From contig CAZVED010000005.1 in assembly GCA_964626205.1 (NCBI GenBank), positions 31,603-95,602 on the forward strand: 64,000 nucleotides of DNA, read 5' to 3'. Position numbers and translations under genes: made by a program. This document shows, one piece after another, positions 7,634 to 63,357 of the stretch (its first letter is position 1; each line of letters opens with the position of its first letter). This DNA comes from an uncultured Gammaproteobacteria bacterium (GTDB lineage Bacteria; Patescibacteriota; Patescibacteriia; SG8-24). The notes under the pieces are model-generated. The model made no database searches. It was not told where the DNA came from and worked only from the letters and a program-made list of their open reading frames with translations.

Positions 7634-8179
7634 ATGGCCAAACAGACAGCCCAACTCGGCCGCCGTTGGTACGCCATCCATACGTACTCCGGCTACGAGG
7701 AGAACGTGAAGTACAACCTCGAGCAGCGTATCGAGTCGCTCGACATGAAAGAAAAGATCTTCGCCGTCCTCGTCCCGAAGGAGAAGAAGATCAAGATCAA
7801 GAACGGCAAGCGCAAGGTCGTCGAAGAGAAGATCTTCCCCGGCTACGTGCTCGTGGAGATGGTCGTGGATGACGCGTCCTGGTACGTCGTGCGCAACACG
7901 CCGAACGTCACCGGATTCATCGGCACAGGGACCATCCCGACACCGGTCTCCGACACGGAAATCAAGTCGCTCCAGAAGCGCATGGGTGTGGACGAGCCGG
8001 AATACAAGATCGACGTGGAGGTCAACTCCGCGGTCACCATCAGCGACGGTCCGTTCAAGAACTTCGAAGGCAAGGTCGCCGAGATCGACGAGGCTCGCGG
8101 AAAGATCAAGGTCCTCGTCAACATGTTCGGTCGCGAAACGCCGGTGGAGCTGGACTTCTTGCAGGTCAAGAAAGTCTAA
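7634..8179 (+). CDS. nusG: transcription termination/antitermination factor NusG
   Basis: MAKQTAQLGRRWYAIHTYSGYEENV (NGN domain) and a C-terminal KOW (GPFKNFEGKVAEIDEARGKIKVLVNMFGRETPVELDF). Confidence 0.92.
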   Translation: MAKQTAQLGRRWYAIHTYSGYEENVKYNLEQRIESLDMKEKIFAVLVPKEKKIKIKNGKRKVVEEKIFPGYVLVEMVVDDASWYVVRNTPNVTGFIGTGTIPTPVSDTEIKSLQKRMGVDEPEYKIDVEVNSAVTISDGPFKNFEGKVAEIDEARGKIKVLVNMFGRETPVELDFLQVKKV

Positions 8180-8196
8180 ATGACGGAATAGCGGCC

Positions 8197-8255
8197 ATCT
8201 CGGGGTACAACTTTTTGTCGAGCCATAGTCTCGCCAAAAAGTGTACCCGTCGTGC
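8197..8255. repeat. 59-bp palindromic element, copy A (inverted partner at 16307-16365, 58/59 identical)
   Basis: atctcggggtacaactttttgtcgagccatagtctcgccaaaaagtgtacccgtcgtgc. Itself an imperfect hairpin (ggggtacaactttttg / caaaaagtgtaccc) with inner stem cgag-ccatagt-ctcg. Confidence 0.85.
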
Positions 8256-8413
8256 CCGCCCCTATCCGTCACACTTCTACCTCAACGTCACCTGAGCACG
8301 TCGAACCGAAAGCGACCGATATCGAAAAGCGCATCCATGCGGGTGCGCTTTTCGCATTGACGGAAAACGCTTCTCATGCCCAAGATACGCACGCACCGCA
8401 AGGAGGTCTTTCC

Positions 8414-9832
8414 ATGACACATGTCCAGCAGGTCCGTTCCCCTATCGACGGGGAAGTCTGTTTCGAGCAGCAAAAGACGTACACCGCGACAGCCACCGGC
8501 ATGGGCACCCTCGCCGAGCGTACGTTCCGCGACTGGCGGCTCGTTCCCGCGCCTGTGCGCGGCGAGCTCGTCCGTCGCTTCGGTGAAAAGCTGCGCGCGC
8601 ACGAAGACGTGCTCGCGGCGGTCATCACCCGCGAGTCCGGCAAGCTCCTTTCGGAGGCGCACATCGAAGTCCGTAAGATGGCCGACATGTGTGACTTCGC
8701 AGCCGGACTCTCGCGACAGCTCCACGGCATCACCATGCCGTCGGAACGCGCACGTCACCGGCTCATGGAGCAGTGGCATCCGTTGGGGCCCGTACTCGTC
8801 ATCACGTCATTCAACTTCCCGGCAGCGGTCTTCGTCTGGAACGCCGCGCTCGCACTCGTCTGCGGCAACCCGGTCATCTGGAAGCCGTCGGAGAAATGCC
8901 TCGGTACTGCCGACCTCTGCACGCGCCTCTTCCGCGAGGCCGCGACGGAAGTCCCCGGCTGCATTGGGCACCGTCTCCTGCAAGTCGCCGTCGGCGGCGC
9001 GGACGTCGCGAAAGCGCTCGTCGCGCTCCCGTATGTCCGGCTCGTCTCCGCCACGGGCAGCTGCGCCATGGGTCGCGATATCGCGGCACGGTGCGCACCG
9101 GACCTCGGCAAGCGCATGCTCCTCGAACTCGGCGGCAACAACGCAAGCATCGTGACACCGTCCGCCGACCTCGCCTCAGCGGTTCCGGCGATCGTCGCTG
9201 CCGCGACCGGCATGGCCGGGCAACGCTGTACGTCGCTGCGACGCCTCATCGTGCATGAGTCCGTCCGTGACGCGCTCGTCGAGCGCCTCGAAGCCGCGTA
9301 CGCCGCACTCGTCGTCGGCGACCCGCGCATCGCGGGAACGCACGTCGGCCCGATGATCGACGCCGCAGCATCGCTCCGTATGACGATCGCGCTCCAGCGC
9401 GCCGCCAAGGAAGACGGCACGGTCGTCTATGGCGGCAAACGCGTGGCCGTGCCTGGATGCGACGGCGGCTACTACCGCCACCCCGCGCTCATTACGATGC
9501 CGAGCCAGACGGAGATCGTCCGCGAAGAAACGTTCGCACCGATTCTTTACGTCATGACGTATCGGTACTTCGACGACGCCATCGCGATGCAGAACGGCGT
9601 CGCGCAAGGGCTTGCTTCCTCCATCTTCACGAACGACGTGCGCGAGGCGGAAGCGTTCCTCTCGGCGGCTGGCTCCGACTGCGGCGTCGCTGCAGTGAAC
9701 ACCGGCCCCGCGCTCGGCGACATCGGTGGCGCGTTCGGCGGTGAAAAGGACACGGGCGGCGGCCGCGAGTGCGGCTCCGATGCCTGGCGGCAGTACATGC
9801 GACGGTCCACACAGGTCGTGAACTTCGGTTAG
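8414..9832 (+). CDS. aldehyde dehydrogenase, ALDH7/AASADH (piperideine-6-carboxylate dehydrogenase)-like
   Basis: ALDH motifs (SFNFPAAV, ELGGNNASIV, catalytic-Cys region GQRCTS, EETFAPILYV) and the ALDH7-specific C-terminus IGGAFGGEKDTGGGRECGSDAWRQYMRRST. RBS aaggagg before ATG at 8414. The track ORF from 8252 starts inside repeat A. Confidence 0.8.
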   Translation: MTHVQQVRSPIDGEVCFEQQKTYTATATGMGTLAERTFRDWRLVPAPVRGELVRRFGEKLRAHEDVLAAVITRESGKLLSEAHIEVRKMADMCDFAAGLSRQLHGITMPSERARHRLMEQWHPLGPVLVITSFNFPAAVFVWNAALALVCGNPVIWKPSEKCLGTADLCTRLFREAATEVPGCIGHRLLQVAVGGADVAKALVALPYVRLVSATGSCAMGRDIAARCAPDLGKRMLLELGGNNASIVTPSADLASAVPAIVAAATGMAGQRCTSLRRLIVHESVRDALVERLEAAYAALVVGDPRIAGTHVGPMIDAAASLRMTIALQRAAKEDGTVVYGGKRVAVPGCDGGYYRHPALITMPSQTEIVREETFAPILYVMTYRYFDDAIAMQNGVAQGLASSIFTNDVREAEAFLSAAGSDCGVAAVNTGPALGDIGGAFGGEKDTGGGRECGSDAWRQYMRRSTQVVNFG

Positions 9833-9838
9833 GCTCTC

Positions 9839-9870
9839 TGACGACCCTCTCTTCTGGGGGTCATTTTTTG
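9839..9870 (+). terminator. rho-independent terminator after the ALDH gene
   Basis: tgacgaccctctcttctgggggtca followed by ttttttg. Confidence 0.6.
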
Positions 9871-9900
9871 TATGAAAAAACCGACAGCAGATGCCGTCGG
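9871..9900 (-). terminator. rho-independent terminator for the convergent minus gene
   Basis: The minus strand reads ccgacggcatctgctgtcgg followed by ttttttcat. Confidence 0.6.
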
Positions 9901-9902
9901 CT

Positions 9903-10469
9903 TCACGTAGGAAAGAAGAGAATCGTCATCCCGAACACTGCACGTGACGCACGGAGGAACTGCCCCCATGAACGGACCTGTACCTCGCTCTGTGCCGGAT
10001 CGAGATACCACACCCTACGATGCGATGCCGCCACAAGAACGACGTAATGTGGCTCTGGTGACGACTCCTCGTTACCATGCAGGACGTTCACGTCGACGCT
10101 GGCAATAACCGGTCTGCGCGCGGAAAGCTCTCGCATGACCATCGGACGCGTGAGCGTTCCGGATACGACCGTGCCGCCGACATCGACGTACGCGGACGAA
10201 AGCGCTTTAACGATGCTATATGCATCCTTCGACGCCTGCAGACGCACCTCGGTCTTCACGCCACAGCTCGCAAGCCACGCGGCGATGTCGAACGGAGAGC
10301 ACCCCTGCCAACCGGTCGACGTCGTGTTCCAAGAGAACTCCTTCGCGATATCCGCAAGCGGAACCTCCGCTCCGGTCAGGTAAGCATTCACCATGCCTGC
10401 GCACGCAGGCCCACACCACCGCGAGCTTTCTGGCTGCATGAGCAAAGGGATAGAAAGGAACGTCGGCAT
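9903..10469 (-). CDS. papain-like cysteine peptidase, C39-like (Peptidase_C39_2) domain protein
   Basis: Candidate catalytic Cys in SRWCGPACAGMVNAY and His in EPHYVVLVAAS, with the spacing and context typical of C39-like peptidases. Confidence 0.5.
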   Translation of the reverse strand: MPTFLSIPLLMQPESSRWCGPACAGMVNAYLTGAEVPLADIAKEFSWNTTSTGWQGCSPFDIAAWLASCGVKTEVRLQASKDAYSIVKALSSAYVDVGGTVVSGTLTRPMVMRELSARRPVIASVDVNVLHGNEESSPEPHYVVLVAASHRRVWYLDPAQSEVQVRSWGQFLRASRAVFGMTILFFPT

Positions 10470-10644
10470 TCACCACCTCCTTCAAGGGTCGAGTGAAATG
10501 ACTGCCTTTTTTATCATGAAAGGAGCTTATCGTCAAGCTCAAGACCACCTCTTTACAACCTCCAACCCATACGGTAAGGTGTCGCGGTAACGGTGGACCC
10601 CATTTAAGCCGGGGCGCTTCTCTCCGTTGCCTAACGACGGTTCT

Positions 10645-11070
10645 ATGGCAAAGGCTATCAAGGCCCTTATCAAACTCCAGATCCCGGCAGGCAAGGCGAA
10701 TCCTGCGCCGCCAGTGGGTCCCGCGCTCGGCCAACACGGCCTCAACATCGCGGAATTCTGTCAGAAGTTCAACGCCGCGACGCAACAGCTCGGCGGCGAC
10801 ATCACCCCGGTGGTGATCACGGTGTACGATGATCGCACCTACGACTTCATCCTCAAGACCCCTCCGGCCTCCGTCCTCATCAAGAAGGTCGCAGGCATCG
10901 AGAGCGGCGCGAAGAATCAACTCACGGACACGGCTGGCAGCCTCACGAAGGCGCAGGTCCGCGAGATCGCCGAGAAGAAGCTCCCGGATCTCAACACCAC
11001 GAACATCGAGTCCGCCATGCGCATCATCGAAGGCACGGCTCGGCAAATGGGCGTGAAGATCAAACCGTAA
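10645..11070 (+). CDS. rplK: 50S ribosomal protein L11
   Basis: [35 protein letters not shown]... Confidence 0.95.
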
Positions 11071-11136
11071 GGATTACGAAACTATTCATGTGGGAGGTCC
11101 GCACGCGGACCGCAAACACCACGTAAACCGAATACT

Positions 11137-11817
11137 ATGGCACACGGAAAGCGCTACAACGAACTCGCGAAACTTGTCGACCGGACCAAGACCTACTCCG
11201 TCGAAGAGGCGGTCGCTCTCGTGAAGAAGACCTCCACCACCAAGTTTGATGGCTCCGTCGAAGTCCACGTCCGTCTCGGTATCGACCCGAAGAAGTCCGA
11301 CCAGCAGGTCCGCTCCACAGTGAGCCTTCCGCACGGTACGGGTAAGACGAAGAAGATTGCCGTCTTCACGGGCGGTGACAAGGAAAAGGAAGCGACGGAT
11401 GCGGGTGCGGACATTGTCGGCGGCGAAGAACTTATCGGCGAAATCGCCAAGTCCGGCAAGATCGACTTCGATGTCGCAATCGCAACGCCGGACATGATGC
11501 CGAAGCTCGCAAAGGTCGCAAAAATCCTCGGTCCGCGCGGCCTCATGCCGTCCCCGAAGAACGACACGGTCACCACGAACCTGACGAAGACCATCGAAGA
11601 GCTCAAGAAGGGTAAGGTCGCTTTCAAGACCGATGACACCGCCAACGTCCACCAGATCGTCGGCAAGGCATCGTTCTCGGAGGCCCAGCTCATCGAGAAC
11701 CTCACCGCGTTCATGGACGCGCTGAAGCGCAACAAGCCGTCGTCCTCCAAGGGCGTCTTCATCAAGAGCGTCACCCTGACCTCCACGATGGGCCCTGGTA
11801 TCAAGGTCGCAGCATAA
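11137..11817 (+). CDS. rplA: 50S ribosomal protein L1
   Basis: MAHGKRYNELAKLVDRTKTYSVEEAVALVKK... The intergenic hairpin ggtccgcacgcggacc at about 11089-11110 may be an L1 autoregulatory site. Confidence 0.95.
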   Translation: MAHGKRYNELAKLVDRTKTYSVEEAVALVKKTSTTKFDGSVEVHVRLGIDPKKSDQQVRSTVSLPHGTGKTKKIAVFTGGDKEKEATDAGADIVGGEELIGEIAKSGKIDFDVAIATPDMMPKLAKVAKILGPRGLMPSPKNDTVTTNLTKTIEELKKGKVAFKTDDTANVHQIVGKASFSEAQLIENLTAFMDALKRNKPSSSKGVFIKSVTLTSTMGPGIKVAA

Positions 11818-11834
11818 GCGAACAGACCCGGAAA

Positions 11835-11865
11835 GACCGCCCTGCAACGGGCGGTCTTTCGTTCC
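11835..11865 (+). terminator. rho-independent terminator after rplA
   Basis: gaccgccctgcaacgggcggtc followed by tttcgttcc. Confidence 0.65.
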
Positions 11866-11902
11866 TTGAAACGGCTTCCCTTTTCCGCTACGCTTCCGCC
11901 AT

Positions 11903-12481
11903 ATGATTCTCTCCGACAAGGACATCAAGCAAGCGCTCGCCGATGGACGGATTTCCATTGATCCGTACGACCCGTCATACGTGCAGCCGGCCTCCGTGGA
12001 CCTCCGCCTGGACCGGACGTTCCTTATCTTCGACACGGTGAATCACTACGTCATCGACGTCCGCAAACCGGCGGACGACCTTATGCGCAAAGTAGTCATC
12101 AAAGATGATGAGCCGTTCATCCTCCATCCGGGCGAGTTCGCGCTCGGCGCCACCTTCGAAGAGGTCGGTGTGGGCAACGACATGGTCGGCCGCTTGGAGG
12201 GAAAAAGTTCGCTCGGCCGGCTCGGCATCATCATCCACGCCACCGCCGGCTACCTCGACCCAGGCAACAAACTCAAGATGACGCTCGAACTCTCCAACAT
12301 CGGCTCGCTTCCGGTGAAGCTCTATTACAAGATGCCGATCGCGCAGATGTCCTACTCCCCGCTTTCGAGCGTCTGTGAAAATCCGTACGGCAGCGGAAAA
12401 CTGCACTCCAAGTACTACGGCGCCCAGGAACCGCAAGCATCGCAGATGTGGAAAAATTTTGAAAAAAAGGATACTGAATGA
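11903..12481 (+). CDS. dcd: dCTP deaminase
   Basis: MILSDKDIKQALADGRISIDPYDPSYVQPASVDLRLDRTF... typical Dcd N-terminus and length. Its stop overlaps the next start (ATGA). Confidence 0.85.
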   Translation: MILSDKDIKQALADGRISIDPYDPSYVQPASVDLRLDRTFLIFDTVNHYVIDVRKPADDLMRKVVIKDDEPFILHPGEFALGATFEEVGVGNDMVGRLEGKSSLGRLGIIIHATAGYLDPGNKLKMTLELSNIGSLPVKLYYKMPIAQMSYSPLSSVCENPYGSGKLHSKYYGAQEPQASQMWKNFEKKDTE

Positions 12482-12879
12482 TCCGTATGGTGCTCCGCTC
12501 CCGCAACTCCATGGCCGCAACCGTCGCAGCAATCGCTGTCGGCGTGTTCGGCGCGCTACCAACGTTCGCGCAAACAACGATGGATTACGGCATGGACTAC
12601 GCTGAGGGTATCGGCCTCCCATCCGCACCGTTGCAGACCATCATCACCGGCTTTCTCCGCGCAACCCTCGGCTTCGTCGGCTTCGCCATGGTGCTCCAGA
12701 TCATGTACGCCGGCTACCTCATGATGACCCACGGCGACAAGGAAGAAGCGCGCGAGAAGGCCGTCGCCGCGCTTACGCAGAGCGTCGTCGGCTTTCTCAT
12801 CATCGCCACCGCCACCTCTACCGCGAAGTTCGTCGTGAATGCGGTGGTGAACGCGCAGAACGGCGGCTTCTACTCCTAG
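12478..12879 (+). CDS. TrbC/VirB2-like T4SS pilin family protein (signal peptide + two hydrophobic helices)
   Basis: Signal peptide ending ALPTFAQ, then helices LQTIITGFLRATLGFVGFAMVLQIMYAGYLMM and SVVGFLIIATATSTAKFVVNAV. RBS aagga. ATGA overlap with the dcd stop, and dut starts 5 nt after its stop. Confidence 0.65.
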   Translation: MIRMVLRSRNSMAATVAAIAVGVFGALPTFAQTTMDYGMDYAEGIGLPSAPLQTIITGFLRATLGFVGFAMVLQIMYAGYLMMTHGDKEEAREKAVAALTQSVVGFLIIATATSTAKFVVNAVVNAQNGGFYS

Positions 12880-12883
12880 CACC

Positions 12884-13318
12884 ATGAACCTCCGCATCAC
12901 CCGCATCGACAAGGGGCTCCCGCTGCCGAAATACGAAACGTCCGGCGCCTGCGCGTTCGATGTCTTCGCGCGTGAAGAGGTGGTCGTGGCGCCAAAGTCC
13001 CTCGGCATGATTCCGACCGGCCTCGTGGTCTGCGTACCTAGCGGCCACACACTTCTCCTCGCCTCGCGCTCCTCCACCCCAAAAAAGAAAGGCTTGCTCA
13101 TCCCCCACGGCATCGGCATCGTGGATCAAGACTACTGCGGCCCGGAGGACGAGATGAAAGTGCAAGTCTGGAACTTCACCGATGAGCCAGTTACCGTCAC
13201 ACGTGGCGAACGCATCGCTCAAGCCATGCTCGTCCCCATCGTCCGTGCAGAGCTCGTCGAGACAGAGGCTGGCACACTGCAAGAAAAAAGTCGTGGCGGA
13301 TTCGGAAGTACAGGATGA
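12884..13318 (+). CDS. dut: dUTP diphosphatase
   Basis: dUTPase motifs GIGIVDQDYCG and the C-terminal RGGFGSTG. Confidence 0.9.
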   Translation: MNLRITRIDKGLPLPKYETSGACAFDVFAREEVVVAPKSLGMIPTGLVVCVPSGHTLLLASRSSTPKKKGLLIPHGIGIVDQDYCGPEDEMKVQVWNFTDEPVTVTRGERIAQAMLVPIVRAELVETEAGTLQEKSRGGFGSTG

Positions 13319-13350
13319 AAAAATGACCCTCTGCTGAGAGGGTCATTTGC
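13319..13350. terminator. bidirectional terminator between dut (+) and gmk (-)
   Basis: gaaaaaatgaccctctgctgagagggtcatttgcg (A-run, hairpin, T-run). Confidence 0.7.
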
Positions 13351-13360
13351 GTTGGAGAAG

Positions 13361-13957
13361 CTACTCCTTATCTGCAACCGGCGGAATGTCGTCACGTCGC
13401 TCCACGATGGCAAGCAGTTCCTCGACCGTTGCCTTGAGCATTCCGTCGCGGTTCGTAATGACGCTGCCGAACTCGTGTGCCGCGGCGACCTCCTCACGTG
13501 CGCGCTGCATGCGCCACTCGACGTCCTCCTTGGACCGCTGACGCGCTTCATGCCGCTTGCGAAGCTGCTCCAGCGACTCCGGCCGGATGAAGATGGACCG
13601 TGATTCAGGGAACGCAGCAAGAGCCTTGCGTGCGCCATTCACGTCGATGACCGCGAAAACGACATCGTAGTCGTGCAGCATCTGTTCGATGACGACACGG
13701 GAAGAACCGTACAGGTTCCCGTCGAACTCGTTGTACTCAAGGAACTCTCCGCGCTCGATCCTGCGCTCGAACTCCTCACGATCAATGAAGTGATAGTCTT
13801 CTCCATCGACCTCTCGGTCCCCTTTCGGACGCGTCGTCGTCGTGACCAGGCGCGCAGCAGAAGGCAGGCGCGCGATCGCCTCTTCGACAATGGTCGTCTT
13901 TCCGCCCGCGGACGGACCGATGACGACGACCAATTCACCGTGCTTGCCATGCTCCAT
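13361..13957 (-). CDS. gmk: guanylate kinase
   Basis: MEHGKHGELVVVIGPSAGGKTT (P-loop), TTTRPKGDREVDGEDYHFI. Alternative upstream start at 13996 (MVATMEL...). The 276-aa track ORF is over-extended. Confidence 0.85.
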   Translation of the reverse strand: MEHGKHGELVVVIGPSAGGKTTIVEEAIARLPSAARLVTTTTRPKGDREVDGEDYHFIDREEFERRIERGEFLEYNEFDGNLYGSSRVVIEQMLHDYDVVFAVIDVNGARKALAAFPESRSIFIRPESLEQLRKRHEARQRSKEDVEWRMQRAREEVAAAHEFGSVITNRDGMLKATVEELLAIVERRDDIPPVADKE

Positions 13958-14051
13958 AGGATCTCCATTGGATGGAAGCTCCATGGTAGCAACCATCCCC
14001 GTGGCGGGCAAGTACGAAAAGCCGGCCCGAAACATCGGGCCGGTACGGGAA

Positions 14052-14837
14052 TCAGACCTTGCGGTATGCGGGAACGTACGACGGAATGCCGTTGATGTCC
14101 TGGATGTCGTACCCTTGGAAGAAGTTCGGGTACCGTTCTGAGACCGTCGCAGCGACCTCCGCGAAGACGAGACGGATCTCCTCCTCTGCACCCTCGGACG
14201 TGCGCATCTCGATCACGTGCCGCAGCGCGCGGGCGTTGGCAGACCAGCCAATGGTCGTCGCGAGCCCTTCGGGCGCGAGACGGCGCATCGCCGACGTGAC
14301 CTCCTTCTTCTTGGCGAACGGCAGCGCGCCCTCGTCGAGCTTGAAGTGCGCGGCCAGCGTGCGCTGCATGTCCTCCAAGATCTCGACGGTCGAAGTGACG
14401 AGCTCGCAGACGACCTCATCTTCCGCGAAGCAGACCGGGAGCCAGAAGCCGATGTCCGTGAGACGCACGTACCGGAGGCTCTCCTGGGAGATGGCCGTGC
14501 CGGCACGGTGCCGGACGAGCTCGTGCGTGAACACGCGCGAGACGTCCGCGAAGACGAAGTTGAACTGGGGATGCTCGAGCACGGAGCCGTGCGCCGACTT
14601 CAGGATGTTCTCGAGGTACAGCGCATTGCCCTCGCGGATCTTCGTCACGTTCGGATTCAATCCGACTTCGAAGCTCCGGTAACACAGGCGACCGTAGAAC
14701 TCAGCGAGCTTCTCGGCGTCAGAGCCTGCATCCGTCGACCAGTGCGGGATGCCGAGATGCTTAAGATACGCCTGCAGGCCGTCGGGGACGATTCGTGTCT
14801 CCCCGATAAGGAAAACACGTGGAGTGACTGAACGCAT
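14052..14837 (-). CDS. thyX: FAD-dependent thymidylate synthase ThyX
   Basis: ThyX motif ELVRHRAGTAISQESLRYV (RHR...S). RBS aaggagg before ATG at 14837. Confidence 0.9.
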   Translation of the reverse strand: MRSVTPRVFLIGETRIVPDGLQAYLKHLGIPHWSTDAGSDAEKLAEFYGRLCYRSFEVGLNPNVTKIREGNALYLENILKSAHGSVLEHPQFNFVFADVSRVFTHELVRHRAGTAISQESLRYVRLTDIGFWLPVCFAEDEVVCELVTSTVEILEDMQRTLAAHFKLDEGALPFAKKKEVTSAMRRLAPEGLATTIGWSANARALRHVIEMRTSEGAEEEIRLVFAEVAATVSERYPNFFQGYDIQDINGIPSYVPAYRKV

Positions 14838-14962
14838 CGGATACCTCCTTGCTTGAACGCTGCTGCAGTATACACGTAGGCCAACTCCGGTCAACCGCAC
14901 CGTCCACCTGGCCCGCTTGCGATGAGATTCTCGGCATGGCAAGCTCCTTGCGGGAGGATCTT

Positions 14963-15691
14963 ATGACCCACGGCAAACTCATCGTCATCGAAGGTTCCGA
15001 CGGATCCGGCAAGGCCACGCAGACGAAGCTGCTTGCCGAACGAATCGGCCAAGACGTCGCGACCTTCGCCTTCCCCCGCTACGGCATGCCCGCAGCACAC
15101 CTGCTGCAGCGCTACCTCGGACGGAACATGGACCGCTACGCGCGGACCCTCACGCCGTACCAGGCCTCGTTCACCTACGCCGCAGACCGGCTCGACTGGG
15201 CTGTCACGGAAGGTTACGCGCTGCTGGAAAGCGGTGCGAACGTTCTCCTGGACCGGTACGTCCTGTCAAACCTGGCGCACCAAGGCGCCCGCATCCCGAA
15301 CTTCGAGATGCGACGCCTGTTCTACGACTGGTGCCTCGGGTTCGAATTCATGGACCTTCAGCTCCCTCGCCCGGACCTCACCGTCCTGCTCCACGTCGCA
15401 TCGGAAGTGAGCATCGCGCTCATCGAGAAACGCGGCGCAACGACGGACGCGCATGAGGCCGACCATAGCCACCTGCGCGCAGCGGAAGCCGCCTACCTCG
15501 AGCTCGCAGACCTCCTCCCCGGCCTCGGCCACAAAGTGCGCGTCGTGGAATGCATGCGCAATCCCGACATGTCCCCCGAGGACATCCGCACAGCACTCGC
15601 GGATGGCGGCATCGGAGCCGTCCTCCTCACGGAAGCGGAAATCCACGAGTGCGTCTGGGAGGCTGTCCAGCCGACCATCCTCGCCTCATGA
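14963..15691 (+). CDS. tmk: thymidylate kinase
   Basis: MTHGKLIVIEGSDGSGKATQTKLLAERIG. RBS gggagg before ATG at 14963. Track ORF extended from 14849. Confidence 0.88.
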   Translation: MTHGKLIVIEGSDGSGKATQTKLLAERIGQDVATFAFPRYGMPAAHLLQRYLGRNMDRYARTLTPYQASFTYAADRLDWAVTEGYALLESGANVLLDRYVLSNLAHQGARIPNFEMRRLFYDWCLGFEFMDLQLPRPDLTVLLHVASEVSIALIEKRGATTDAHEADHSHLRAAEAAYLELADLLPGLGHKVRVVECMRNPDMSPEDIRTALADGGIGAVLLTEAEIHECVWEAVQPTILAS

Positions 15692-15699
15692 ACCGCACG

Positions 15700-15730
15700 C
15701 CCCGCATCATCACGATGCGGGGTTTTTCTT
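15700..15730 (+). terminator. rho-independent terminator after tmk
   Basis: ccccgcatcatcacgatgcgggg followed by tttttcttg. Confidence 0.7.
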
Positions 15731-15816
15731 GTCCATAGACTTGACCGTACCGGCAAGCCATGCTACCCTCATCGGTCCGCCTCACTGCCAAACCGAGAGC
15801 GGAAGAGGGGTACGTC

Positions 15817-16197
15817 ATGAAGGACATGTACCAACAACCGGAATTCGAAGAACGGAAGTACGGATGGAACAGCGCCCTGCAACTCGGCTATCGGAAGACC
15901 GCGGCACTCATCGCGGACCGGAGTCATTGCTACACGGAGATCATGAACGCGCTTGCCGAAGAGGCAGGCATCGAGACCGCATTGGCGCACCTTGAGACGA
16001 TTGGCTATGCCCGATGGGCCTACCGTTTCGCGCGCCACGTCGCAGGACTCACCCCAGCGCAGCACAACCGCCTCATCGCCATCGTCACGGCCTCTGGCAG
16101 CATCGAGTACGCAACCTGGTACTTCGAAGATGTCGCTGACCTCACAGAAGATCATCTGTCACAGCTCCGTGCCGCCGCGTTACGGAAAGCCGCCTGA
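15817..16197 (+). CDS. hypothetical protein (126 aa)
   Basis: MKDMYQQPEFEERKYGWNS... Followed by a strong terminator. No family recognised. Confidence 0.4.
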   Translation: MKDMYQQPEFEERKYGWNSALQLGYRKTAALIADRSHCYTEIMNALAEEAGIETALAHLETIGYARWAYRFARHVAGLTPAQHNRLIAIVTASGSIEYATWYFEDVADLTEDHLSQLRAAALRKAA

Positions 16198-16204
16198 ATC
16201 GACC

Positions 16205-16245
16205 CCGGCACGACGTGTGCCGGGGTTTTTCTTTAAACATCAGCC
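16205..16245 (+). terminator. rho-independent terminator
   Basis: accccggcacgacgtgtgccggggt followed by ttttctttaaa. Confidence 0.7.
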
Positions 16246-16306
16246 AGCAAAACAAGTTCGGGAGTTCTCGTAGAATATGGCACGCGCGTCCGATATGAGG
16301 AGGTGA

Positions 16307-16365
16307 GCACGACGGGTACACTTTTTGGCGAGACTATGGCTCGACAAAAAGTCGTACCCCGAGAT
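16307..16365. repeat. 59-bp palindromic element, copy B (reverse complement of copy A at 8197-8255, one mismatch)
   Basis: gcacgacgggtacactttttggcgagactatggctcgacaaaaagtcgtaccccgagat is the reverse complement of copy A except for a T/C at one position. Confidence 0.85.
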
Positions 16366-16411
16366 GCTCACCATTCCTCCCCAAAAGACACTCGTGCTAT
16401 ACTATTTCCAT

Positions 16412-17167
16412 ATGCGTGAACTCATGAGCGCCACGGACCTCATCGTCGGGTCGTGGGAAAACCTCAAAAAGCACCTTTCTTCTTACCTCGGTTACGTGGT
16501 CTGGTTCATGGCGCTCGCGTTGGTGCAGTGGATCCTGCTCATCGTGACGCGCAACCTCATCGACGACGCCATCGTACGGACCATGGTCCACGCCCTGATA
16601 ACGCTCCCCGTCACGCTGATGGCCGCCGTCGTGAGCGTCGGCGTGACCCATATGACCGCCGAAACGCTTCAAGGCCGTCGTCCGGATCCTCGCGCGTCGT
16701 TCACGGTCGGCATCCACAAGCTCGTCTCCTTCATCTGGGTCTCGTTCCTCGTTGGCCTCATCCTCTTCTTTGGCGCGATTCTCCTCGTCGTTCCGTTCAT
16801 CCATTTCTTCGTCGCCTTGAATTTCGCAACGCTCTACCTCATCGTCGATGACGTCCGTGGAACTGCCGCACTCCGCGCGAGCCGCGACCTCGTCGCCGGA
16901 CGCTGGTGGCCGGCCATGTGGCGCATCGCGATTCCGCTCCTCTTCTTCAACGTCGCCGCCGCGCTCGCTATTTCGTTGCTCTACCTCGTCATCGGCGCCT
17001 TCTTCGGCGATCCCCGCATCTTCTTCCAGGATGTCACCAGCGTCTACGACATCTCCAACGCGCAACTCCTCGTGACCACCGTCCTTCCCCAGGTCATCGC
17101 CGGCTTCATGCTTCCGCTCTACGCTGCCGCGGAGCTACTGCTCTGGTTCGACATGAAACGGGGGTAA
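16412..17167 (+). CDS. hypothetical polytopic membrane protein
   Basis: MRELMSATDLIVGSW... with six or more hydrophobic helices. TATACT -10-like hexamer 12 nt upstream. The track ORF from 16325 starts inside repeat B. Confidence 0.5.
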   Translation: MRELMSATDLIVGSWENLKKHLSSYLGYVVWFMALALVQWILLIVTRNLIDDAIVRTMVHALITLPVTLMAAVVSVGVTHMTAETLQGRRPDPRASFTVGIHKLVSFIWVSFLVGLILFFGAILLVVPFIHFFVALNFATLYLIVDDVRGTAALRASRDLVAGRWWPAMWRIAIPLLFFNVAAALAISLLYLVIGAFFGDPRIFFQDVTSVYDISNAQLLVTTVLPQVIAGFMLPLYAAAELLLWFDMKRG

Positions 17168-47829: not shown

Positions 47830-48498
47830 ATGCGGCAATCCTGGCTCGCTCTCGCTTTCCTCATCCTCATCAGCGCGCTCGTGCTGGCGGCATTCGCCAT
47901 CCGCACGCTCCCCGCTCCGCAGCGCGATACCGCGGAAGACGCCTCCGACCTTCCTGCCATCGACGTGCCGAGCGTCGATTTCGCAAACCCGTCCAAAGGC
48001 GCGCTCGATGCCGTTGTGCGCATCGTCCAGTACGGCGACTTCCTCTGCGCCTCCTGCGCACAGCTTGCACCAGACCTCGACCGACTCCTCGAAGACTACG
48101 CCGGCTCCGTCCGCGTCGTCTGGAAGGACTTCCCCAACACCTCCGCACACCCGGGTACGGATACGGCTTCCATCGCCGCACGGTGCGCACAACGCCAAGG
48201 CGCGTTCTGGGAGTATCATGACCTGCTCCTCATCGACCGCATCGCGGTAACGGAAGCATCTCTTGTTTCCGCAGCAGAAGCGCTCGGCTTGGACGCGGAG
48301 AGCTTCCGTACCTGCCTCATCACGAAAGAAACCGTCCCCATGATCGACCGCGACTTCGTGGAGGGGCAGATTCTCCGCGTGGACGGTACGCCGTATCTCT
48401 TCGTGAACGACCGCCGTGTGTCCGGCTCCATCTCCTACGACCAGCTTGCCCAGATCGTGGAGGCGCTTGGTGCGGTTCCTGTCACTCCATCCAACTGA
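47830..48498 (+). CDS. DsbA-like thiol:disulfide oxidoreductase (thioredoxin fold, CxxC = CASC)
   Basis: N-terminal TM anchor, VVRIVQYGDFLCASCAQ, DsbA-like length and C-terminal pattern. Confidence 0.65.
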   Translation: MRQSWLALAFLILISALVLAAFAIRTLPAPQRDTAEDASDLPAIDVPSVDFANPSKGALDAVVRIVQYGDFLCASCAQLAPDLDRLLEDYAGSVRVVWKDFPNTSAHPGTDTASIAARCAQRQGAFWEYHDLLLIDRIAVTEASLVSAAEALGLDAESFRTCLITKETVPMIDRDFVEGQILRVDGTPYLFVNDRRVSGSISYDQLAQIVEALGAVPVTPSN

Positions 48499-48505
48499 TG
48501 CCCGT

Positions 48506-49630
48506 ATGCCGCTCTTCCGCCGCGCTATCGCGACCCTTGCCCTCGCTGTCGTCCTCATGACGGCAGCGTTCGGCGTGCTCGTGCCCACCACACTCGCGCA
48601 GGTGCAGGTCATCGAGCCGACACTCAGCATTCCGATACCAAATCTGAAATTCAGCGACGCCGAGGTCATCGACGCAGCATCCGGAAACGCCGAAGGTCTC
48701 GGCATCTCATGGATTGCAGACTACGTCCAAGCTGTCTACGACTACGCCATCGCCATCGCGGGCGTGCTCGCTGCCACCATGATGATGATTGGCGGGTTCC
48801 AGTATCTCACCGCCGGCGGCGACGGCGGAAAGGTTAGCGGTGCCAAGAAGCGCATCGGTGACGCACTCGTCGGTCTCATCCTCGCGCTCGGAACGTATGT
48901 CATTCTCACGACGGTCAGCGACCGGCTCGTAGCACTCCAGCGCATCGACGTCGAGATGGTTGAGCGGCAAATGTTCGCCGTCACGGACCTGCACGATGCG
49001 GGAGCGATTGCGCCCGATACGGGTGGCGGGGCTGCAGCGAAAGGCAGTCCGGTGTGTACCAACACGGAAACCTGTACCCCGATCTGCAACTTGCCGCGAA
49101 GTCAATGGCCAAAGACGGGAGGGAACGTCTTGCCCGTGGAGCAGACCGTCATCATCGGTCGCTTGCCAGGCATCAGCTCCGGGCATTCCTTGCGTGTCGC
49201 GCCAGAAATGCAGACCGCACTCGAACGCGCTGGAAGAATCGCTCAGCAGCGGGGGTATACGATCAATATCGGATCTGCATACCGCCCGCTGGAAAACCAG
49301 ATAGCAGCGGCGTGCGAAAAGATCAAGCAGGGCTTGGGGGATCAAATCGGTAGCATCGTCGCCCGCCCAGGAACGTCCAATCACGGACATGGTAAGGCGG
49401 TCGATGTCGTGCTCATGCGGGATGGAAAAAAGGTGACGACATCTGCATCCAGCCAGCAATACGACGAGGTCTGGCGTGACCATGCGATGGTTCTCGCGGA
49501 GATCATGGCCGAAGCCGGACTTGTCCGATATAGCCGAGAAATCTGGCATTTCGAGATCCCGACCGGTGAAGCGTGCCGCTGCAAAGGAGCCGCTTGCGCA
49601 TTCCCTCCTCCCAAAGCCCCTAGTTGTTGA
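48506..49630 (+). CDS. fusion protein: TrbC/VirB2-like pilin N-terminal domain + C-terminal M15 (VanY-like) zinc D,D-peptidase domain
   Basis: Signal peptide ...TTLAQ, two pilin-type helices (YAIAIAGVLAATMMMIGGF / ALVGLILALGTYVILTTVS), then the M15 motif SNHGHGKAVDV (SxHxxGxAxD). Eight Cys in the extracytoplasmic part. The track ORF from 48416 has an N-terminal extension. Confidence 0.6.
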   Translation: MPLFRRAIATLALAVVLMTAAFGVLVPTTLAQVQVIEPTLSIPIPNLKFSDAEVIDAASGNAEGLGISWIADYVQAVYDYAIAIAGVLAATMMMIGGFQYLTAGGDGGKVSGAKKRIGDALVGLILALGTYVILTTVSDRLVALQRIDVEMVERQMFAVTDLHDAGAIAPDTGGGAAAKGSPVCTNTETCTPICNLPRSQWPKTGGNVLPVEQTVIIGRLPGISSGHSLRVAPEMQTALERAGRIAQQRGYTINIGSAYRPLENQIAAACEKIKQGLGDQIGSIVARPGTSNHGHGKAVDVVLMRDGKKVTTSASSQQYDEVWRDHAMVLAEIMAEAGLVRYSREIWHFEIPTGEACRCKGAACAFPPPKAPSC

Positions 49631-51647: not shown

Positions 51648-53312
51648 TTACGCGCTTTTTACCGTCGGAAGCACCACGTGGAAGGTCGTCCCCTTTCCCT
51701 CCTCGGAATCAAACCATACGCGACCATCATGCTTCTCCACGATGGATTTCACGATATACAGACCAAGGCCGGTCCCTTCGACCCCTTCCGCGGCGTTCGA
51801 TGCACGGAAGAACTTACTGAACATCTTCGGCTGCTCGTCCTTAGGAATCCCCATTCCAGCGTCCTTCACGAAGAGCTGCAGCACTCCATCGACCGTCTCC
51901 AATCCGACCTCCACCTTGCCGCCGTCCCGCGAGTATTTCACCGCATTGCCAATCAGGTTCGAGAACACCTCCCTGAACTTGTCGGTATCCACATCGAGCA
52001 TGAGCGAGGCAGGAAGCGTCGGCGATGCCAGCACGACCTTCTTTTGTGTCGCTGCGGGCACGAAGTCCGTGAGGATCGACGCGAGCACCGGAACGACATC
52101 GGTAGGCTTGCGGACCAAGTTGAACTTCTTGCCAGTCTCGATACGCGACACGCTCAGCAAGTCGCCCACCAAGCGCAATAGCCGATCCGCGATGGATTCG
52201 ACCTGCGACACGGGCTGATGCTGCTCTGCCGAAATCTTGCCGAAATCGCCGCCAAGGAGCGCTTCTACCGTCCACTTGATGCTGGTGAGCGGAGTCTTGA
52301 GCTGATGACTGGCGAGCGAGACAAATTCCGTCTTCATCTGGTCGATCTCGTGCTCTTTCGTCATATCCTCATATACGGAAACCGCACCGTTCACGCTGCC
52401 ATCCGCGCCTCGCACCGGCGCCGCAACAACACGGAGAACGATACGTCCGCCATCAGGACGATTCACAAAGATATCGGACTTGGTGACCGTCTCCCCCGAC
52501 TTGAGTGCCATCGATGTCGGAAGCTCTTCCGGCGGATAGGGTGATCCGTTCTCTTTGCTGACATGAAATCGAGCCGTATACTTGGCAATGTTCAGCATGG
52601 ACTCCGGTTCACGGCCAGCGATACGTATCGCGGCGCCGTTCACCGCAAGTGTCTCACCTTGCGCATTGACCATGATCGCGCCGACCGGAAGGTTCTCAAG
52701 CAATACACGCAAACGCTCACGCTGCTCGACGACGACACGCCGCGCCTTGTCCCAACCGCTTTCTGCGACGTACCCAAGCAAGTTCAACAGGAGCAGCGAC
52801 GACCATACTTGCCTCAATTGATCGTATTCGTAATAGGACGCCACGGCACCCTGTCGCACAGCAAGCGCATAGGCAACGTGCGAGACGAAAAATGCGGCAT
52901 TGTACCAGTTACCGAGCCTCACCCCTTGGAACAGGTACGTCGTGCTCGGGAATACGAGTGACCAATAGATGCCTGTGCCATTAATGCCACCGCTCTCGAG
53001 AATGACGAGCAAAAGCACACCCGAACAAATAGTGATTGCTGGTTTGGCGAGCGCAATCCGCTTGTGCCACTTATACAGGAACCAGTTCACGACTTCGATG
53101 ACACCGAGCCCGATTTCCAGAAGCCCGAGGCCGATGTCACCCTGACTCAACCGGTACGCGCCATACGCAAGCAAGTAGGGCGCCAGTAGCCACGTAAAAA
53201 GGTTCAGCATCCGTTGCTGACGCCTCTCTTCTGCGGCCTCGGCGGTCGTTTGCTCGAAAAACAAGCTCGTATTCACAGCATTTTTTTGGTCCATATCCTC
53301 ATATTTTAGCAA
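51648..53312 (-). CDS. sensor histidine kinase (polytopic membrane N-terminus, PAS, HisKA, HATPase_c); no response regulator adjacent
   Basis: H-box LASHQLKTPLTSI, N-box NLIGNAVKYS, G-boxes DAGMGI and GTGLGL, PAS-like segment. Confidence 0.85.
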   Translation of the reverse strand: MLKYEDMDQKNAVNTSLFFEQTTAEAAEERRQQRMLNLFTWLLAPYLLAYGAYRLSQGDIGLGLLEIGLGVIEVVNWFLYKWHKRIALAKPAITICSGVLLLVILESGGINGTGIYWSLVFPSTTYLFQGVRLGNWYNAAFFVSHVAYALAVRQGAVASYYEYDQLRQVWSSLLLLNLLGYVAESGWDKARRVVVEQRERLRVLLENLPVGAIMVNAQGETLAVNGAAIRIAGREPESMLNIAKYTARFHVSKENGSPYPPEELPTSMALKSGETVTKSDIFVNRPDGGRIVLRVVAAPVRGADGSVNGAVSVYEDMTKEHEIDQMKTEFVSLASHQLKTPLTSIKWTVEALLGGDFGKISAEQHQPVSQVESIADRLLRLVGDLLSVSRIETGKKFNLVRKPTDVVPVLASILTDFVPAATQKKVVLASPTLPASLMLDVDTDKFREVFSNLIGNAVKYSRDGGKVEVGLETVDGVLQLFVKDAGMGIPKDEQPKMFSKFFRASNAAEGVEGTGLGLYIVKSIVEKHDGRVWFDSEEGKGTTFHVVLPTVKSA

Positions 53313-53339
53313 AAAAATGACCCGCTGTATAGCGAGTCA

Positions 53340-55472
53340 TTACTCCACATGCGCCGACTCCACGGCGACACGAACCTGCTCGGCAAGGAGCGGGTACCCG
53401 GCGAGCGTGGGGTCTTCCGCAAGGATGCGCTGAGCGGCTTCTTTGGCAGTGCGGACGAGGCTCATGTCCGCAATACTCGCGAATCGGAGCTCCGGGAACC
53501 CGGACTGAGCGTCACCCAGCAGGTCGCCGGGACCGCGCAGCTCTAGGTCTTTTTCCGCGAGCGTGAACCCGTCCTTGTGCTGCACTACCGCCTTGAGCCG
53601 CGCCTTTTCGCCGTCCGTATCCTTCGTGGGGAACAGGAAGCAATACGACGCATGCGCTCCCCTACCGATACGCCCACGGAACTGATGGAGCTGCGCGAGA
53701 CCGAACCGCTCCGCACCCTCGATGCACATCACGCTGGCATTCGGCACGTCCACGCCGACTTCCACGACAGAGGTCGCCACAAGCACCTGCGTCTCGCCCG
53801 CAACGAACCGTCGCATGACCTCTTCTTTCTCCGCAGAGGAGAGCTTCCCGTGAAGCATGCCGACCGTATACCCCTTCAACTCCCCCTTAGCGAGTTTCTC
53901 AAAAAGTTCGGTCACGGATGCTGCCTCCACCATGTCGGAACGGTCGATGAGCGGACAGACTACGAACGCCTGCCGTCCTTGGTCGAGCTGACCGCGCACG
54001 AACGCGAATGCCCTCTTGCGGCCGACCGGCATGACCAGTTTCGTTTCGATATCCTTGCGCGCTGCCGGTTTCTCCTTGAGGAGCGAGAGGTCGAGGTCGC
54101 CGTATGCCGTGAGCGCCAACGAGCGCGGAATCGGCGTTGCAGTCATAGAGAGCAAGTGCGGCTCCGTCCCAACATCACCGCTCTTGGCACGGAGGAGCTT
54201 GCGCGTCCGTACGCCGAACCGATGCTGTTCGTCCACCACGGCGAAAGCAAGGTCGTGGAAACTGAGCGCGTCATAGACGAGCGCATGCGTGCCGATGATG
54301 ATATCCACGCGTCCTTTGGCGATTTCCTCGCCGAGCGCAGCAACCTCCTTTTTCCCTTTCGCTTCGATCTCTTTGCCACCCCGCACCGAACGACGATGCG
54401 CATTGGTCCAGAGCACGATGGTCACATTCTTCTCGCTGGCGAACGTGCGTGCGAACGTGCCGAAGTGCTGCTGCGCGAGAATCTCCGTCGGTGCCATGAC
54501 CGCAACCTGACGACCTGCCGCAACGACGTTCCGTGCGGCAATCATCGCGACCGCGGTCTTGCCAGTACCTACGTCCCCGTCCAAAAGCCGCGCCATGGGA
54601 ATATTCCTGCCCATGTCCTGCATCGCCTCCCACGCTGCGACACGCTGATCCTTGGTGAGGGGGAACGGCAACGACGCCACGAACGCTTTCACGATGTCCT
54701 CGGCAAACGGCACTGGCGCCGCAGTCGCCTTCTCGCGATATGCGCGCATCCTACCGACGGCGATTTGCAGCCGCAGAAGCTCGTCAAACGCCAGGCGGTG
54801 ACGAGCGCGGTCCGCACTGCCCTCAGCTGTCGGAAAATGCGCCTCGCGGAGAGCGGCGGCGAGAGGAAGGAGCCCATACTCCGTGAGTAGCGGCTCCGGG
54901 AGCGGGTCCGGTAAAAGGTCGATGACCGACGCGCACTTTGCCACCGATACCCGCACCGCGCGCTGCGTCAGCCCGATGGTGAGCGGATACACTGGCATGA
55001 CCTCGCGTACGGAGGTGTCGTTTGCCGCGCTCGCAGCAGGCGTCACGACATCCAGAGAACCGACGCGTTCGAACTGCGGATTGATGAGCTTCTTCCCGAA
55101 CTTGGACAGCTTCACCTTTCCCGCGAACCGATATGCATTTCCCACGACGAGCGTCTTCACGAGGTATGGTTGGTTGAACCAGATCGCGCCAATCTCGTCC
55201 GTGCCATCGGAGAGTACAGCCTCGGTCATGGTCATGCGCTTGCGGAAGCTGCGCTTGTTCTGGAGCGCTGTCACCTGCAACGTGAGTGCGACGTTCGTTT
55301 CTGGTATCGCCTCCACCAACCCGCCGCTACCGTACGTTTCGTAGCGAAACGGAAGGTGCAGAAGCAAGTCCCGCACGGTCACAAGGCCGATACCCGAAAA
55401 AACCGGGCATAGCCGTTTGACGATGCCAGGAACATCTTCGAGCCGCGTATCCGGCGTGATCTGCCGTTTCAT
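53340..55472 (-). CDS. recG: ATP-dependent DNA helicase RecG
   Basis: Wedge domain, helicase motifs DVGTGKTAVAM, DEQHRFG, SMTATPIPRS, QFRGRIGRG. Confidence 0.93.
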   Translation of the reverse strand: MKRQITPDTRLEDVPGIVKRLCPVFSGIGLVTVRDLLLHLPFRYETYGSGGLVEAIPETNVALTLQVTALQNKRSFRKRMTMTEAVLSDGTDEIGAIWFNQPYLVKTLVVGNAYRFAGKVKLSKFGKKLINPQFERVGSLDVVTPAASAANDTSVREVMPVYPLTIGLTQRAVRVSVAKCASVIDLLPDPLPEPLLTEYGLLPLAAALREAHFPTAEGSADRARHRLAFDELLRLQIAVGRMRAYREKATAAPVPFAEDIVKAFVASLPFPLTKDQRVAAWEAMQDMGRNIPMARLLDGDVGTGKTAVAMIAARNVVAAGRQVAVMAPTEILAQQHFGTFARTFASEKNVTIVLWTNAHRRSVRGGKEIEAKGKKEVAALGEEIAKGRVDIIIGTHALVYDALSFHDLAFAVVDEQHRFGVRTRKLLRAKSGDVGTEPHLLSMTATPIPRSLALTAYGDLDLSLLKEKPAARKDIETKLVMPVGRKRAFAFVRGQLDQGRQAFVVCPLIDRSDMVEAASVTELFEKLAKGELKGYTVGMLHGKLSSAEKEEVMRRFVAGETQVLVATSVVEVGVDVPNASVMCIEGAERFGLAQLHQFRGRIGRGAHASYCFLFPTKDTDGEKARLKAVVQHKDGFTLAEKDLELRGPGDLLGDAQSGFPELRFASIADMSLVRTAKEAAQRILAEDPTLAGYPLLAEQVRVAVESAHVE

Positions 55473-62226: not shown

Positions 62227-62227
62227 A

Positions 62228-62923: not shown

Positions 62924-62925
62924 GG

Positions 62926-63357
62926 CTATGCTTCAGGGTTATAGACGCCGCCCGTGTTGACGATCATCGTCAGCTCGGAGAGCTTGGAGGCTTCCACGCG
63001 CGCCTTGAGCTTTCGCGTGGGTGGGGGCGGAGGCGGGGGCTCATTGAGAATCGCCTTGAGCTCCGCGTCGGTAAGGTCCTTGTCCCAAACGCGGCGTGGC
63101 GGCTTCCTCCATGTCTGGATGAGGTTCAGCAGGAAAAAATGGAACGGCTGACCGTTGATCTTCGTGAACGCGAGAATACCGCCGAGCGCGAGCTCGATGA
63201 CGCCGACCGTGATAAACAGCGCGAAATCGAAAAGCTGAAACGCGATAAACATGAACATCGCCGTGACGAGCAGAATGACGAACTGCCGCGTCGTGATAGG
63301 ACCGATGATCTTATCTTCGACGTCGATGAATTGCGGAACAACGTATTTCTGCGCCAT
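62926..63357 (-). CDS. PrgI family (VirB3-like) small membrane protein
   Basis: MAQKYVVPQFIDVEDKIIGPITTRQFVILLV matches the PrgI-family N-terminal signature. Two TM helices, poly-Pro C-terminal part. Its stop is 2 nt before the VirB4 N-domain start. Confidence 0.7.
   Translation of the reverse strand: MAQKYVVPQFIDVEDKIIGPITTRQFVILLVTAMFMFIAFQLFDFALFITVGVIELALGGILAFTKINGQPFHFFLLNLIQTWRKPPRRVWDKDLTDAELKAILNEPPPPPPPTRKLKARVEASKLSELTMIVNTGGVYNPEA

Follow-up and report, generated by a model that had tools for sequence, protein, structure and literature searches.

What kind of element lies at two intergenic sites about 8 kb apart in a Patescibacteria genome, nearly identical in sequence and opposite in orientation, and what does its presence imply for the genes between the two sites, the ribosomal protein genes rplK and rplA among them? 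The stretch concerned, here called the window, comprises 64,000 nucleotides of an uncultured bacterium (positions 31,603 to 95,602 of contig CAZVED010000005.1, assembly GCA_964626205.1), and all coordinates below are those of the window. An earlier sequence-only reading had described a 59-bp palindromic element directly after nusG (copy A) and its reverse complement with one mismatch at the far end of the bracketed segment (copy B), and had offered three explanations: a substrate for homologous inversion, a REP-like element family, or scars of rearrangement and acquisition. The explanation that we favour, with about as much confidence as doubt, is that A and B are paralogous copies of a low-copy, lineage-specific palindromic repeat of about 90 nt, akin in kind to the REPIN, miniature inverted-repeat transposable element (MITE), ERIC and Correia repeats, and that the core of this repeat has been homogenised.

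A near-identical inverted pair of long hairpins

The pairing of the two copies agrees with the earlier description to within one base. The core of copy A (8196-8255, plus strand) and the reverse complement of the core of copy B (16307-16366, minus strand) are identical at 59 of 60 positions in an ungapped register, with the sole mismatch at 8209 in A and 16353 in B. A repeat finder reports the pair as arms of 76 nt that are 91% complementary (8185-8260 and 16302-16377); no other inverted pair in the window comes close to this length. A 31-mer taken from the core is found at exactly two places in the window and in none of 100 shuffles. The repeat is real and statistically solid. The 59-nt block is only part of the structured unit, however, which is about 90 nt long and has outer stems, P1 and P2, that are not the same in A and B. 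The full hairpin occupies 8181-8270 on the plus strand for copy A and 16292-16381 on the minus strand for copy B, as judged from folds, from alignments in the case of A, and from the scores of R1, a covariance model of the element that we built and ran with filters off (98.7 bits for A, and 111.2 bits for B at 16293-16381 on the minus strand). The placement of A just after the nusG stop can be sharpened accordingly, the hairpin beginning 2–4 nt past the TAA stop codon at 8177-8179. The two copies lie in opposite orientation, flank about 8 kb, and sit in two unrelated intergenic contexts. Homology between them ends at the hairpin, with 80-nt flanks scoring no better than shuffles, so that the duplicated unit is the hairpin alone.

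The hairpin is built on a basal stem, P1, of 4–5 bp (CGGA/TCCG in A and GAGGA/TCCTC in B), above which are a two-base AU bulge and the 9-bp stem P2, ending in a U.G pair. Next comes an asymmetric 4x3 internal loop, with CUCG on the 5′ side and GUC on the 3′ side, and then an apical hairpin with a bulged A, a U.C mismatch (T.C in DNA) and a 7-nt asymmetric loop, CCATAGT. These last three features bear out the claim that the palindrome is imperfect, with an asymmetric central loop that gives it a defined orientation. Copy A folds at −42.4 kcal/mol as RNA (z −6.8) and −23.8 kcal/mol as DNA, and copy B at −46.9 kcal/mol (z −6.0) and −29.3 kcal/mol, respectively; the hairpin is very stable on both strands, which fold about equally well. 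A hand check of the internal loop on both strands revealed no canonical K-turn or loop-E motif. At the gathering threshold Rfam recognises three tRNAs in the window and no family for the element, and permissive scans of the two loci return generic hairpin (miRNA-precursor) and terminator matches, far below threshold. Small open reading frames (ORFs) that start inside the element can be read in both copies; they are not conserved past the repeat, and a coding role was rejected.

Age of the two sites and divergence of the hairpins

The age of the two sites can be judged from relatives, for which we used four longer contigs (L004–L007) and the short contigs L016 and L019–L021; two others, L017 and L018, were left out as their contigs end too close to nusG or are too distant. 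The most informative is L016, a 1.2-kb contig with a NusG 96% identical to that of the window, in which the sequence 3′ of nusG reads GGAATGGCGGGCATCTCGG-CCCCGCCCTTCGCGAAGGGCGGGG-CGTCGTGCCCGCCTCC. P1, P2 and the internal loop of this element are as in copy A, and the apical part differs, being a perfect 24-nt palindrome. The element folds at −54 kcal/mol, scores 57.4 bits with R1, and is followed by the spacer, nusG terminator and rplK leader of the window, with the two genes that the window carries in between missing. At the position of copy B, L019 (in which the downstream membrane protein is 75% identical) contains the reverse complement of GCGGAATGGCGGGCATCT, identical to the left arm of the L016 element, and a degenerate right arm that overlaps a neighbouring hairpin. 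The apical region of L019 was also considered as a homologue of the window's apex; the similarity is not significant, with 632 of 2000 shuffles scoring as high, and a window-type apex is therefore not claimed to be ancestral. Since L016 and L019 have basal arms at the orthologous positions, both sites are old: the element was at both in the common ancestor of a narrow clade, with later decay or change of the apex by lineage. The earlier proposal that such near-identity implies either recent duplication or strong constraint needs to be refined: the sites are old, and the near-identity is confined to the inner 60 nt, which points to homogenisation of the core.

The divergence between A and B is strikingly unequal along the hairpin. 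The core is identical at 59 of 60 positions, compared with 14 of the 30 flanking stem positions (Fisher p about 9e-9), and this contrast, together with the lack of conservation of the apex across relatives, argues that purifying selection alone does not explain the identity of the core. We infer that the core has been homogenised within the genome, rather than being the product of a single recent duplication.

The basal stems have changed in a different manner. Taking as reference the arm common to L016 and L019 (GCGGA-AT-GGCGGGCAT / GTGCCCGCC-TCCGC), copy B has three left-arm changes, each accompanied by a complementary right-arm change (C-G to A-U in P1, and C-G to U-A and G-C to A-U in P2), and copy A has one uncompensated C.C mismatch. 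By pair counting, 90% of cells are paired, and both partners have changed in 4 of the 14 basal pairs, as compared with 0–2 in slid controls. Complementarity of the arms has been kept through paired changes, a property expected of REP/REPIN-type elements. These compensated changes could equally well reflect selection for the hairpin or template-switch 'quasi-palindrome' correction, the latter being an established mutational mechanism. The shared internal loop is no evidence of constraint, because the arms of A and L016 are only ~8% diverged, and the A and B loops lie inside the homogenised block.

On the favoured explanation, both insertion sites predate the split from the closest sampled relatives, and the inner 60 nt would since have been homogenised in this genome, either by short-tract gene conversion between the inverted copies or because one was copied anew over the other. 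Divergence of the basal stems has left them paired, which could be due to hairpin-templated quasi-palindrome correction or to selection for the hairpin. Copy A would be transcribed within the 3′ end of nusG, and any effect of the element would most likely be that of an orientation-independent stable hairpin, acting as a barrier to 3′-exonucleases, a barrier to terminating ribosomes, or a DNA cruciform, and not that of a switch. Protection of 3′ ends and interference with terminating ribosomes have been reported for REP elements in Escherichia coli.

Copy number, the bracketed segment and rival explanations

Several observations weigh against the interpretation of A and B as members of a repeat family. 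In the window R1 detects no copies besides A and B, its next match being an unrelated hairpin, and in 82 kb from relatives it finds L016 alone. A scan of 185,579 species genomes with GTACNNCTTTTTG..CAAAAAGNGTAC returned only an unrelated Brevibacillus hairpin, and a metagenome scan with CTTTTTGNCGAG..CTCGNCAAAAAG only chance matches in coding sequences, mostly in human-gut contigs, so that a dispersed family is without support; both scans used the exact stem motif in collections that do not contain the window's genome, and their bearing on its copy number is slight. Scans of viral collections found nothing real (a loose basal-motif pattern gave 120 chance matches, none with the hairpin arms), nor did blastn against plasmids and phages. 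By reading, no target-site duplication is apparent in the flanks of A, B, or the L016 and L019 elements, and Pfam scans of ~60 ORFs of the window reveal no transposase, RAYT or integrase. At the B site the element is reduced to traces in L020 and L021, where no hairpin is left, and L004–L007 are without the element at either site, so that it is neither widespread nor uniformly maintained. Finally, covariation among three to four sequences cannot separate selection from templated correction.

Comparison with described repeats is nonetheless instructive. REPINs are said to be REP doublets that form hairpins, and in Proteobacteria the REPIN, REP and BIME elements resemble the present one in being discrete, long intergenic hairpins, found in either orientation, with arms that stay complementary via paired changes and without target-site duplication; they are often in 3′ untranslated regions, and are able to stabilise upstream mRNA or stall terminating ribosomes. 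The element differs in lacking the GT(A/G)G (GTAG-type) tetranucleotide at either end of A, B or the L016 copy, as read by eye, in the size of the unit (~90 nt), in arms that are not REP palindromes, and in having two copies in 64 kb as opposed to tens to hundreds per genome, with no RAYT among the ~60 ORFs scanned in the window. The host, moreover, is an Uhrbacteria-like member of the Patescibacteria, and there is no sequence similarity to known REP. Of the options raised by the sequence-only reading a REP-like family is the closest in kind, as a discrete palindrome in two unrelated spacers, but with only two copies, and without the features that define REP. ERIC (IRU) and Correia (NEMIS) elements are likewise imperfect intergenic palindromes of ~100 nt, probably co-transcribed and present in either orientation, with variants that swap or insert internal segments while the ends are conserved, and the RNA hairpin of such elements can be a target of RNase III or RNase E; the element departs from them in having neither a TA nor another target-site duplication, no sequence similarity, a very low copy number and a narrow clade. 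As in a MITE, the arms act as inverted termini, but no direct repeat flanks A, B, or the L016 and L019 elements; as to an autonomous insertion sequence with matching ends, the window contains no transposase, and scanning the genome, metagenome and viral collections for the core pattern yielded only chance matches.

The rival explanations turn to a large extent on what lies between the copies. By Pfam, the bracketed genes encode an aldehyde dehydrogenase (ALDH), a C39-like peptidase, L11, L1, dCTP deaminase, a type IV secretion system (T4SS)-type pilin, dUTPase, guanylate kinase and ThyX (both on the minus strand) and thymidylate kinase, followed by a 145-amino-acid (aa) ORF without a family; the strand of thyX is a correction to the earlier description. 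In L004, with a NusG 91% identical, the order is secE, nusG, an 82-aa ORF, rplK, rplA, dcd, pilin, dut, gmk (minus), a hypothetical gene (minus), thyX, tmk and the membrane protein gene, all in the orientation seen in the window with the exception of thyX. L005, L006 and L007 have in common nusG, rplK-rplA, dcd, (pilin) and dut, and in L021 the membrane gene is followed by gatB, as in the window. The separation of rplKA from rplJL-rpoBC, which the earlier reading had noted as a departure from the usual order, is to judge from these gene orders the normal arrangement of the lineage. Nor is the segment a mosaic: its backbone order and orientation are shared with Uhrbacteria-like contigs, and only three local additions distinguish it from the relatives, namely the ALDH and C39 genes, the 145-aa ORF with its own terminator, and a xenologous thyX. 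The thyX gene (14052-14942, minus strand) is 25% identical to that of L004 and lies on the opposite strand, as compared with identities of 76% for tmk and 64% for gmk, which are orthologous, and is on this comparison a xenologous replacement within the bracketed segment.

The ~60 ORFs scanned across the window match, by Pfam, only housekeeping functions (gyrB, gatB, miaA, thrS, dnaE, pheST, clpB, radA, recG and others) and T4SS-like genes, with no recombinase, transposase, RAYT, integrase or TnpA among them, in agreement with the earlier remark that the window holds no recombinase gene. The T4SS-like genes, at 60277-63357, 12478-12879 and 48416-49630, encode a VirB4/TraG P-loop ATPase, a PrgI-family protein and two T4SS-pilin-domain proteins, one of which is fused to a VanY/M15 peptidase.

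An active role of the pair in inversion, in which the 8-kb segment is turned round by recombination between A and B, RecA-mediated or site-specific, and the population is left polymorphic for orientation, is suggested by the inverted orientation and the 59/60 identity, and by the positional conservation of both sites in some relatives. Moreover, the homogenised core could have arisen by recombinational exchange between the copies, a process that can alternatively end in a crossover, and as identity of this degree is above the usual minimum for RecA pairing, rare inversion is physically possible. However, L004–L007, L016 and L019–L021 all have the window's orientation, and every relative examined keeps nusG followed by the rplK leader, rplKA-dcd-pilin-dut, and tmk followed by the membrane gene and then gatB. 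The segment's essential, highly expressed genes are co-oriented with their neighbours, and the nusG terminator and rplK leader signals would be separated by a flip. Invertons and shufflons share with this locus the bracketing of a segment by two inverted repeats. In place of a promoter or a variable gene, however, the repeats here enclose 8 kb of conserved housekeeping genes, and no invertase or other tyrosine or serine recombinase is present in the 64-kb window. We consider inversion rather improbable. That the repeats are scars of past rearrangement or acquisition that built a mosaic segment is barely credible: there is local gene flux, as seen in the opposite-strand thyX xenologue and in the addition of ALDH, C39 and the 145-aa ORF relative to the relatives, but the order rplK-rplA and then dcd-pilin-dut-gmk...tmk is normal for the lineage, the additions do not abut the repeats as junction scars would, and relatives without the additions nonetheless carry the repeat arms at these two sites (in L016, nusG, element, terminator and rplK leader in succession). 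The same accessory DNA (ALDH and C39 near A, the 145-aa ORF near B) might instead mark hot spots at a protein-recognised folded-DNA site, similar to an integron attC or a REP/IS200 site and served by an unlinked recombinase or HUH enzyme. The architecture recalls that of attC, in which an imperfect palindrome likewise folds into a conserved outer stem, a central spacer left unpaired, an extrahelical (bulged) base and a terminal part that varies in length and sequence from site to site, and the absence of target duplications is what hairpin-based mechanisms predict. Yet the RYYYAAC/GTTRRRY core sites (R″/R′) are absent from A and B on reading, the window encodes no IntI or other integrase, RAYT or TnpA, and neighbouring genes, which have housekeeping roles or are mixed in orientation, form no array of same-orientation cassettes, nor is the orientation of the element to its neighbours consistent. 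In addition, the native nusG terminator separates ALDH and C39 from A, and the nusG-rplK gap holds other cargo in the element-free L007 and L004. This explanation seems to us quite improbable.

The remaining alternatives assign a function to the folded structure. A structured RNA acting in cis, such as an RNase III site, a 3′-end stabiliser or a ribosome-stalling hairpin past the nusG stop codon, of which the basal stem and 4x3 loop are recognised and the apex is free to vary, would accommodate the three fully compensated P1 and P2 pair changes of B relative to A and L016, the strong folding z-scores, and the location of A inside the predicted nusG transcript, ahead of the terminator. It would also fit the CUCG/GUC loop and U.G pair shared by A, B and L016 despite the different apex of L016, were it not that this conservation is uninformative, given the slight divergence of the A and L016 arms and the homogenised block noted above. 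The two copies are opposite relative to co-directional genes, with the consequence that plus-strand transcripts carry complementary and not identical motifs, and B lies past a strong terminator and before the next promoter. The diverged L019 copy has a changed loop and has lost its right arm, the hairpin is lost from L020 and L021, the perfect-palindrome apex of L016 is more typical of template switching than of selection on RNA, and Rfam offers no match; a cis-acting RNA is accordingly judged unlikely. More speculative still, and very improbable, is a system of conserved paired folded-DNA or RNA recognition sites around the rplKA and nucleotide-metabolism cluster in the Uhrbacteria clade, whose basal stem and internal loop would be read by an unlinked protein, and whose exchangeable apex would be kept identical within each genome. 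To our knowledge such a system has no described counterpart in the Patescibacteria; if it existed, it could serve in recombination, domain boundaries or coordinated RNA processing, and would be a new kind of chromosomal signal in the candidate phyla radiation (CPR). The low-copy palindromic repeat with a homogenised core remains the explanation that we prefer.

Settings of the two copies and significance

Copy A lies between the stop codon of nusG (7634-8179, plus strand) and the nusG terminator (8323-8354, plus strand), a hairpin with a flanking A-run and T-run that is conserved in L004 and L016, and should on this placement belong to the 3′ untranslated part of the nusG transcript. The 181-aa product has Pfam NusG and KOW domains and is 100% identical to a 181-aa database protein (P0001); among its matches at 83–87% identity, the named ones include Candidatus Uhrbacteria, Parcubacteria and other Patescibacteria. 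Inserted between the terminator and the rplK leader are the genes for ALDH (8414-9832, plus strand) and the C39-like peptidase (9903-10469, minus strand), both assigned by Pfam and both accessory, being absent at this position from L004–L007 and L016. The interval 8355-8413 (L004 2524-2574) contains a conserved TTGACG −35-like element and a Shine-Dalgarno sequence 3′ of the nusG terminator, and precedes differing cargo, ALDH in the window and the 82-aa membrane ORF in L004; in L007 four hypothetical genes are found in the nusG-rplK gap. The gap resembles an expression slot that can be used again for different accessory genes and, with cargo that varies among the relatives, is by this comparison a general hot spot that is independent of the repeat.

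Directly 5′ of rplK is a conserved leader of ~85 nt (window 10545-10626, L016 1067-1160, L004 2878-2979), nearly identical in L016 and similar in L004, which opens with a BoxA-like CTCTTTACAAC and contains GGTAAGGTG...GGTGGACCCC. It has no Rfam match even at E-values up to 1, and may be an L1 or antitermination leader. The possibility that the hairpin of A and B is itself an L1 or L11 autoregulatory site was ruled out by this separate conserved leader and by the location of B at a non-ribosomal locus.

Copy B follows the 145-aa ORF, which together with its intrinsic terminator (stem 16201-16227, then a T-run) occupies 15760-16234 on the plus strand, has no family match, and is missing from the interval between tmk and the membrane gene of L004. 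B lies ~65 nt past this strong terminator and ends ~14 nt 5′ of a TGnTATACT extended −10 motif (16395-16403), conserved in an alignment of five loci; the motif and the gene behind it, which by protein alignment encodes a membrane protein similar to DUF7847/UPF0259, span 16395-17167 on the plus strand. Since B comes after a terminator and before the next promoter, its transcription on the plus strand is doubtful. The membrane-protein gene most likely starts at the ATG at 16412, and is apparently leaderless. The database protein (P0121, 267 aa) starts instead at the ATG at 16364, inside the repeat, and the same 16-residue extension is called in L019 (73-120, corresponding to window 16364-16411; MPAIP... 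as against MLTIP...), where the long start is called because the arm of the repeat supplies an ATG. Homologues of the membrane protein begin at MRELMG (251 aa), and the 'extension' itself contains the conserved −10 motif; the longer form was probably annotated in error.

Other hairpins are found near B and elsewhere in the window. A 22-bp near-perfect palindrome, ATATGGCACGCGCGTCCGATAT (16275-16296), directly adjoins hairpin B and has no counterpart beside A. In the terminator that follows the 145-aa ORF, the 3′ half and tail (GTGCCGGGGTTTTTCTTTAA, 16217-16236) match L004 2838-2857 at 19 of 20 positions, although in L004 this terminator is at another locus, after the 82-aa ORF between nusG and rplK, and terminator modules thus seem to move or to be reused. 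A third long intergenic hairpin, at 59393-59485, has 35-nt arms that are 89% complementary and a 13-nt loop (DNA fold −44.5 kcal/mol, z −9.6; 21 bits with R1 at 59390-59491), and is unrelated in sequence to A and B; Rfam gives it only generic miRNA-precursor and mraW-type matches, below threshold. It adjoins an A/T-flanked terminator hairpin at ~59500-59527, and on the minus strand the succession of terminator, hairpin and next gene parallels the layout at B. Terminator-like hairpins with A/T flanks and the form AAAAAATGACCC..loop..GGGTCATTT recur at 9843-9869, 13318-13347 and 53312-53341, two of them between convergent genes, and these three similar structures look like another small repeated intergenic family. 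The additional long hairpin and the repeated terminator hairpins fit a genome in which intergenic hairpins duplicate.

The finding does not indicate an invertible ribosomal-protein operon. It has a practical value for annotation, as the spurious upstream ATG of the element adds 16 residues to the membrane protein in two genomes. Our literature searches on repeat elements in Patescibacteria/CPR (palindromic repeats and MITEs) gave no relevant description. The locus is notable because its paired sites are old and their shared core homogenised, and because the host belongs to the Patescibacteria; the genomes of this group are small and streamlined, and the element would provide a small, clean case of concerted evolution and palindrome maintenance among them.

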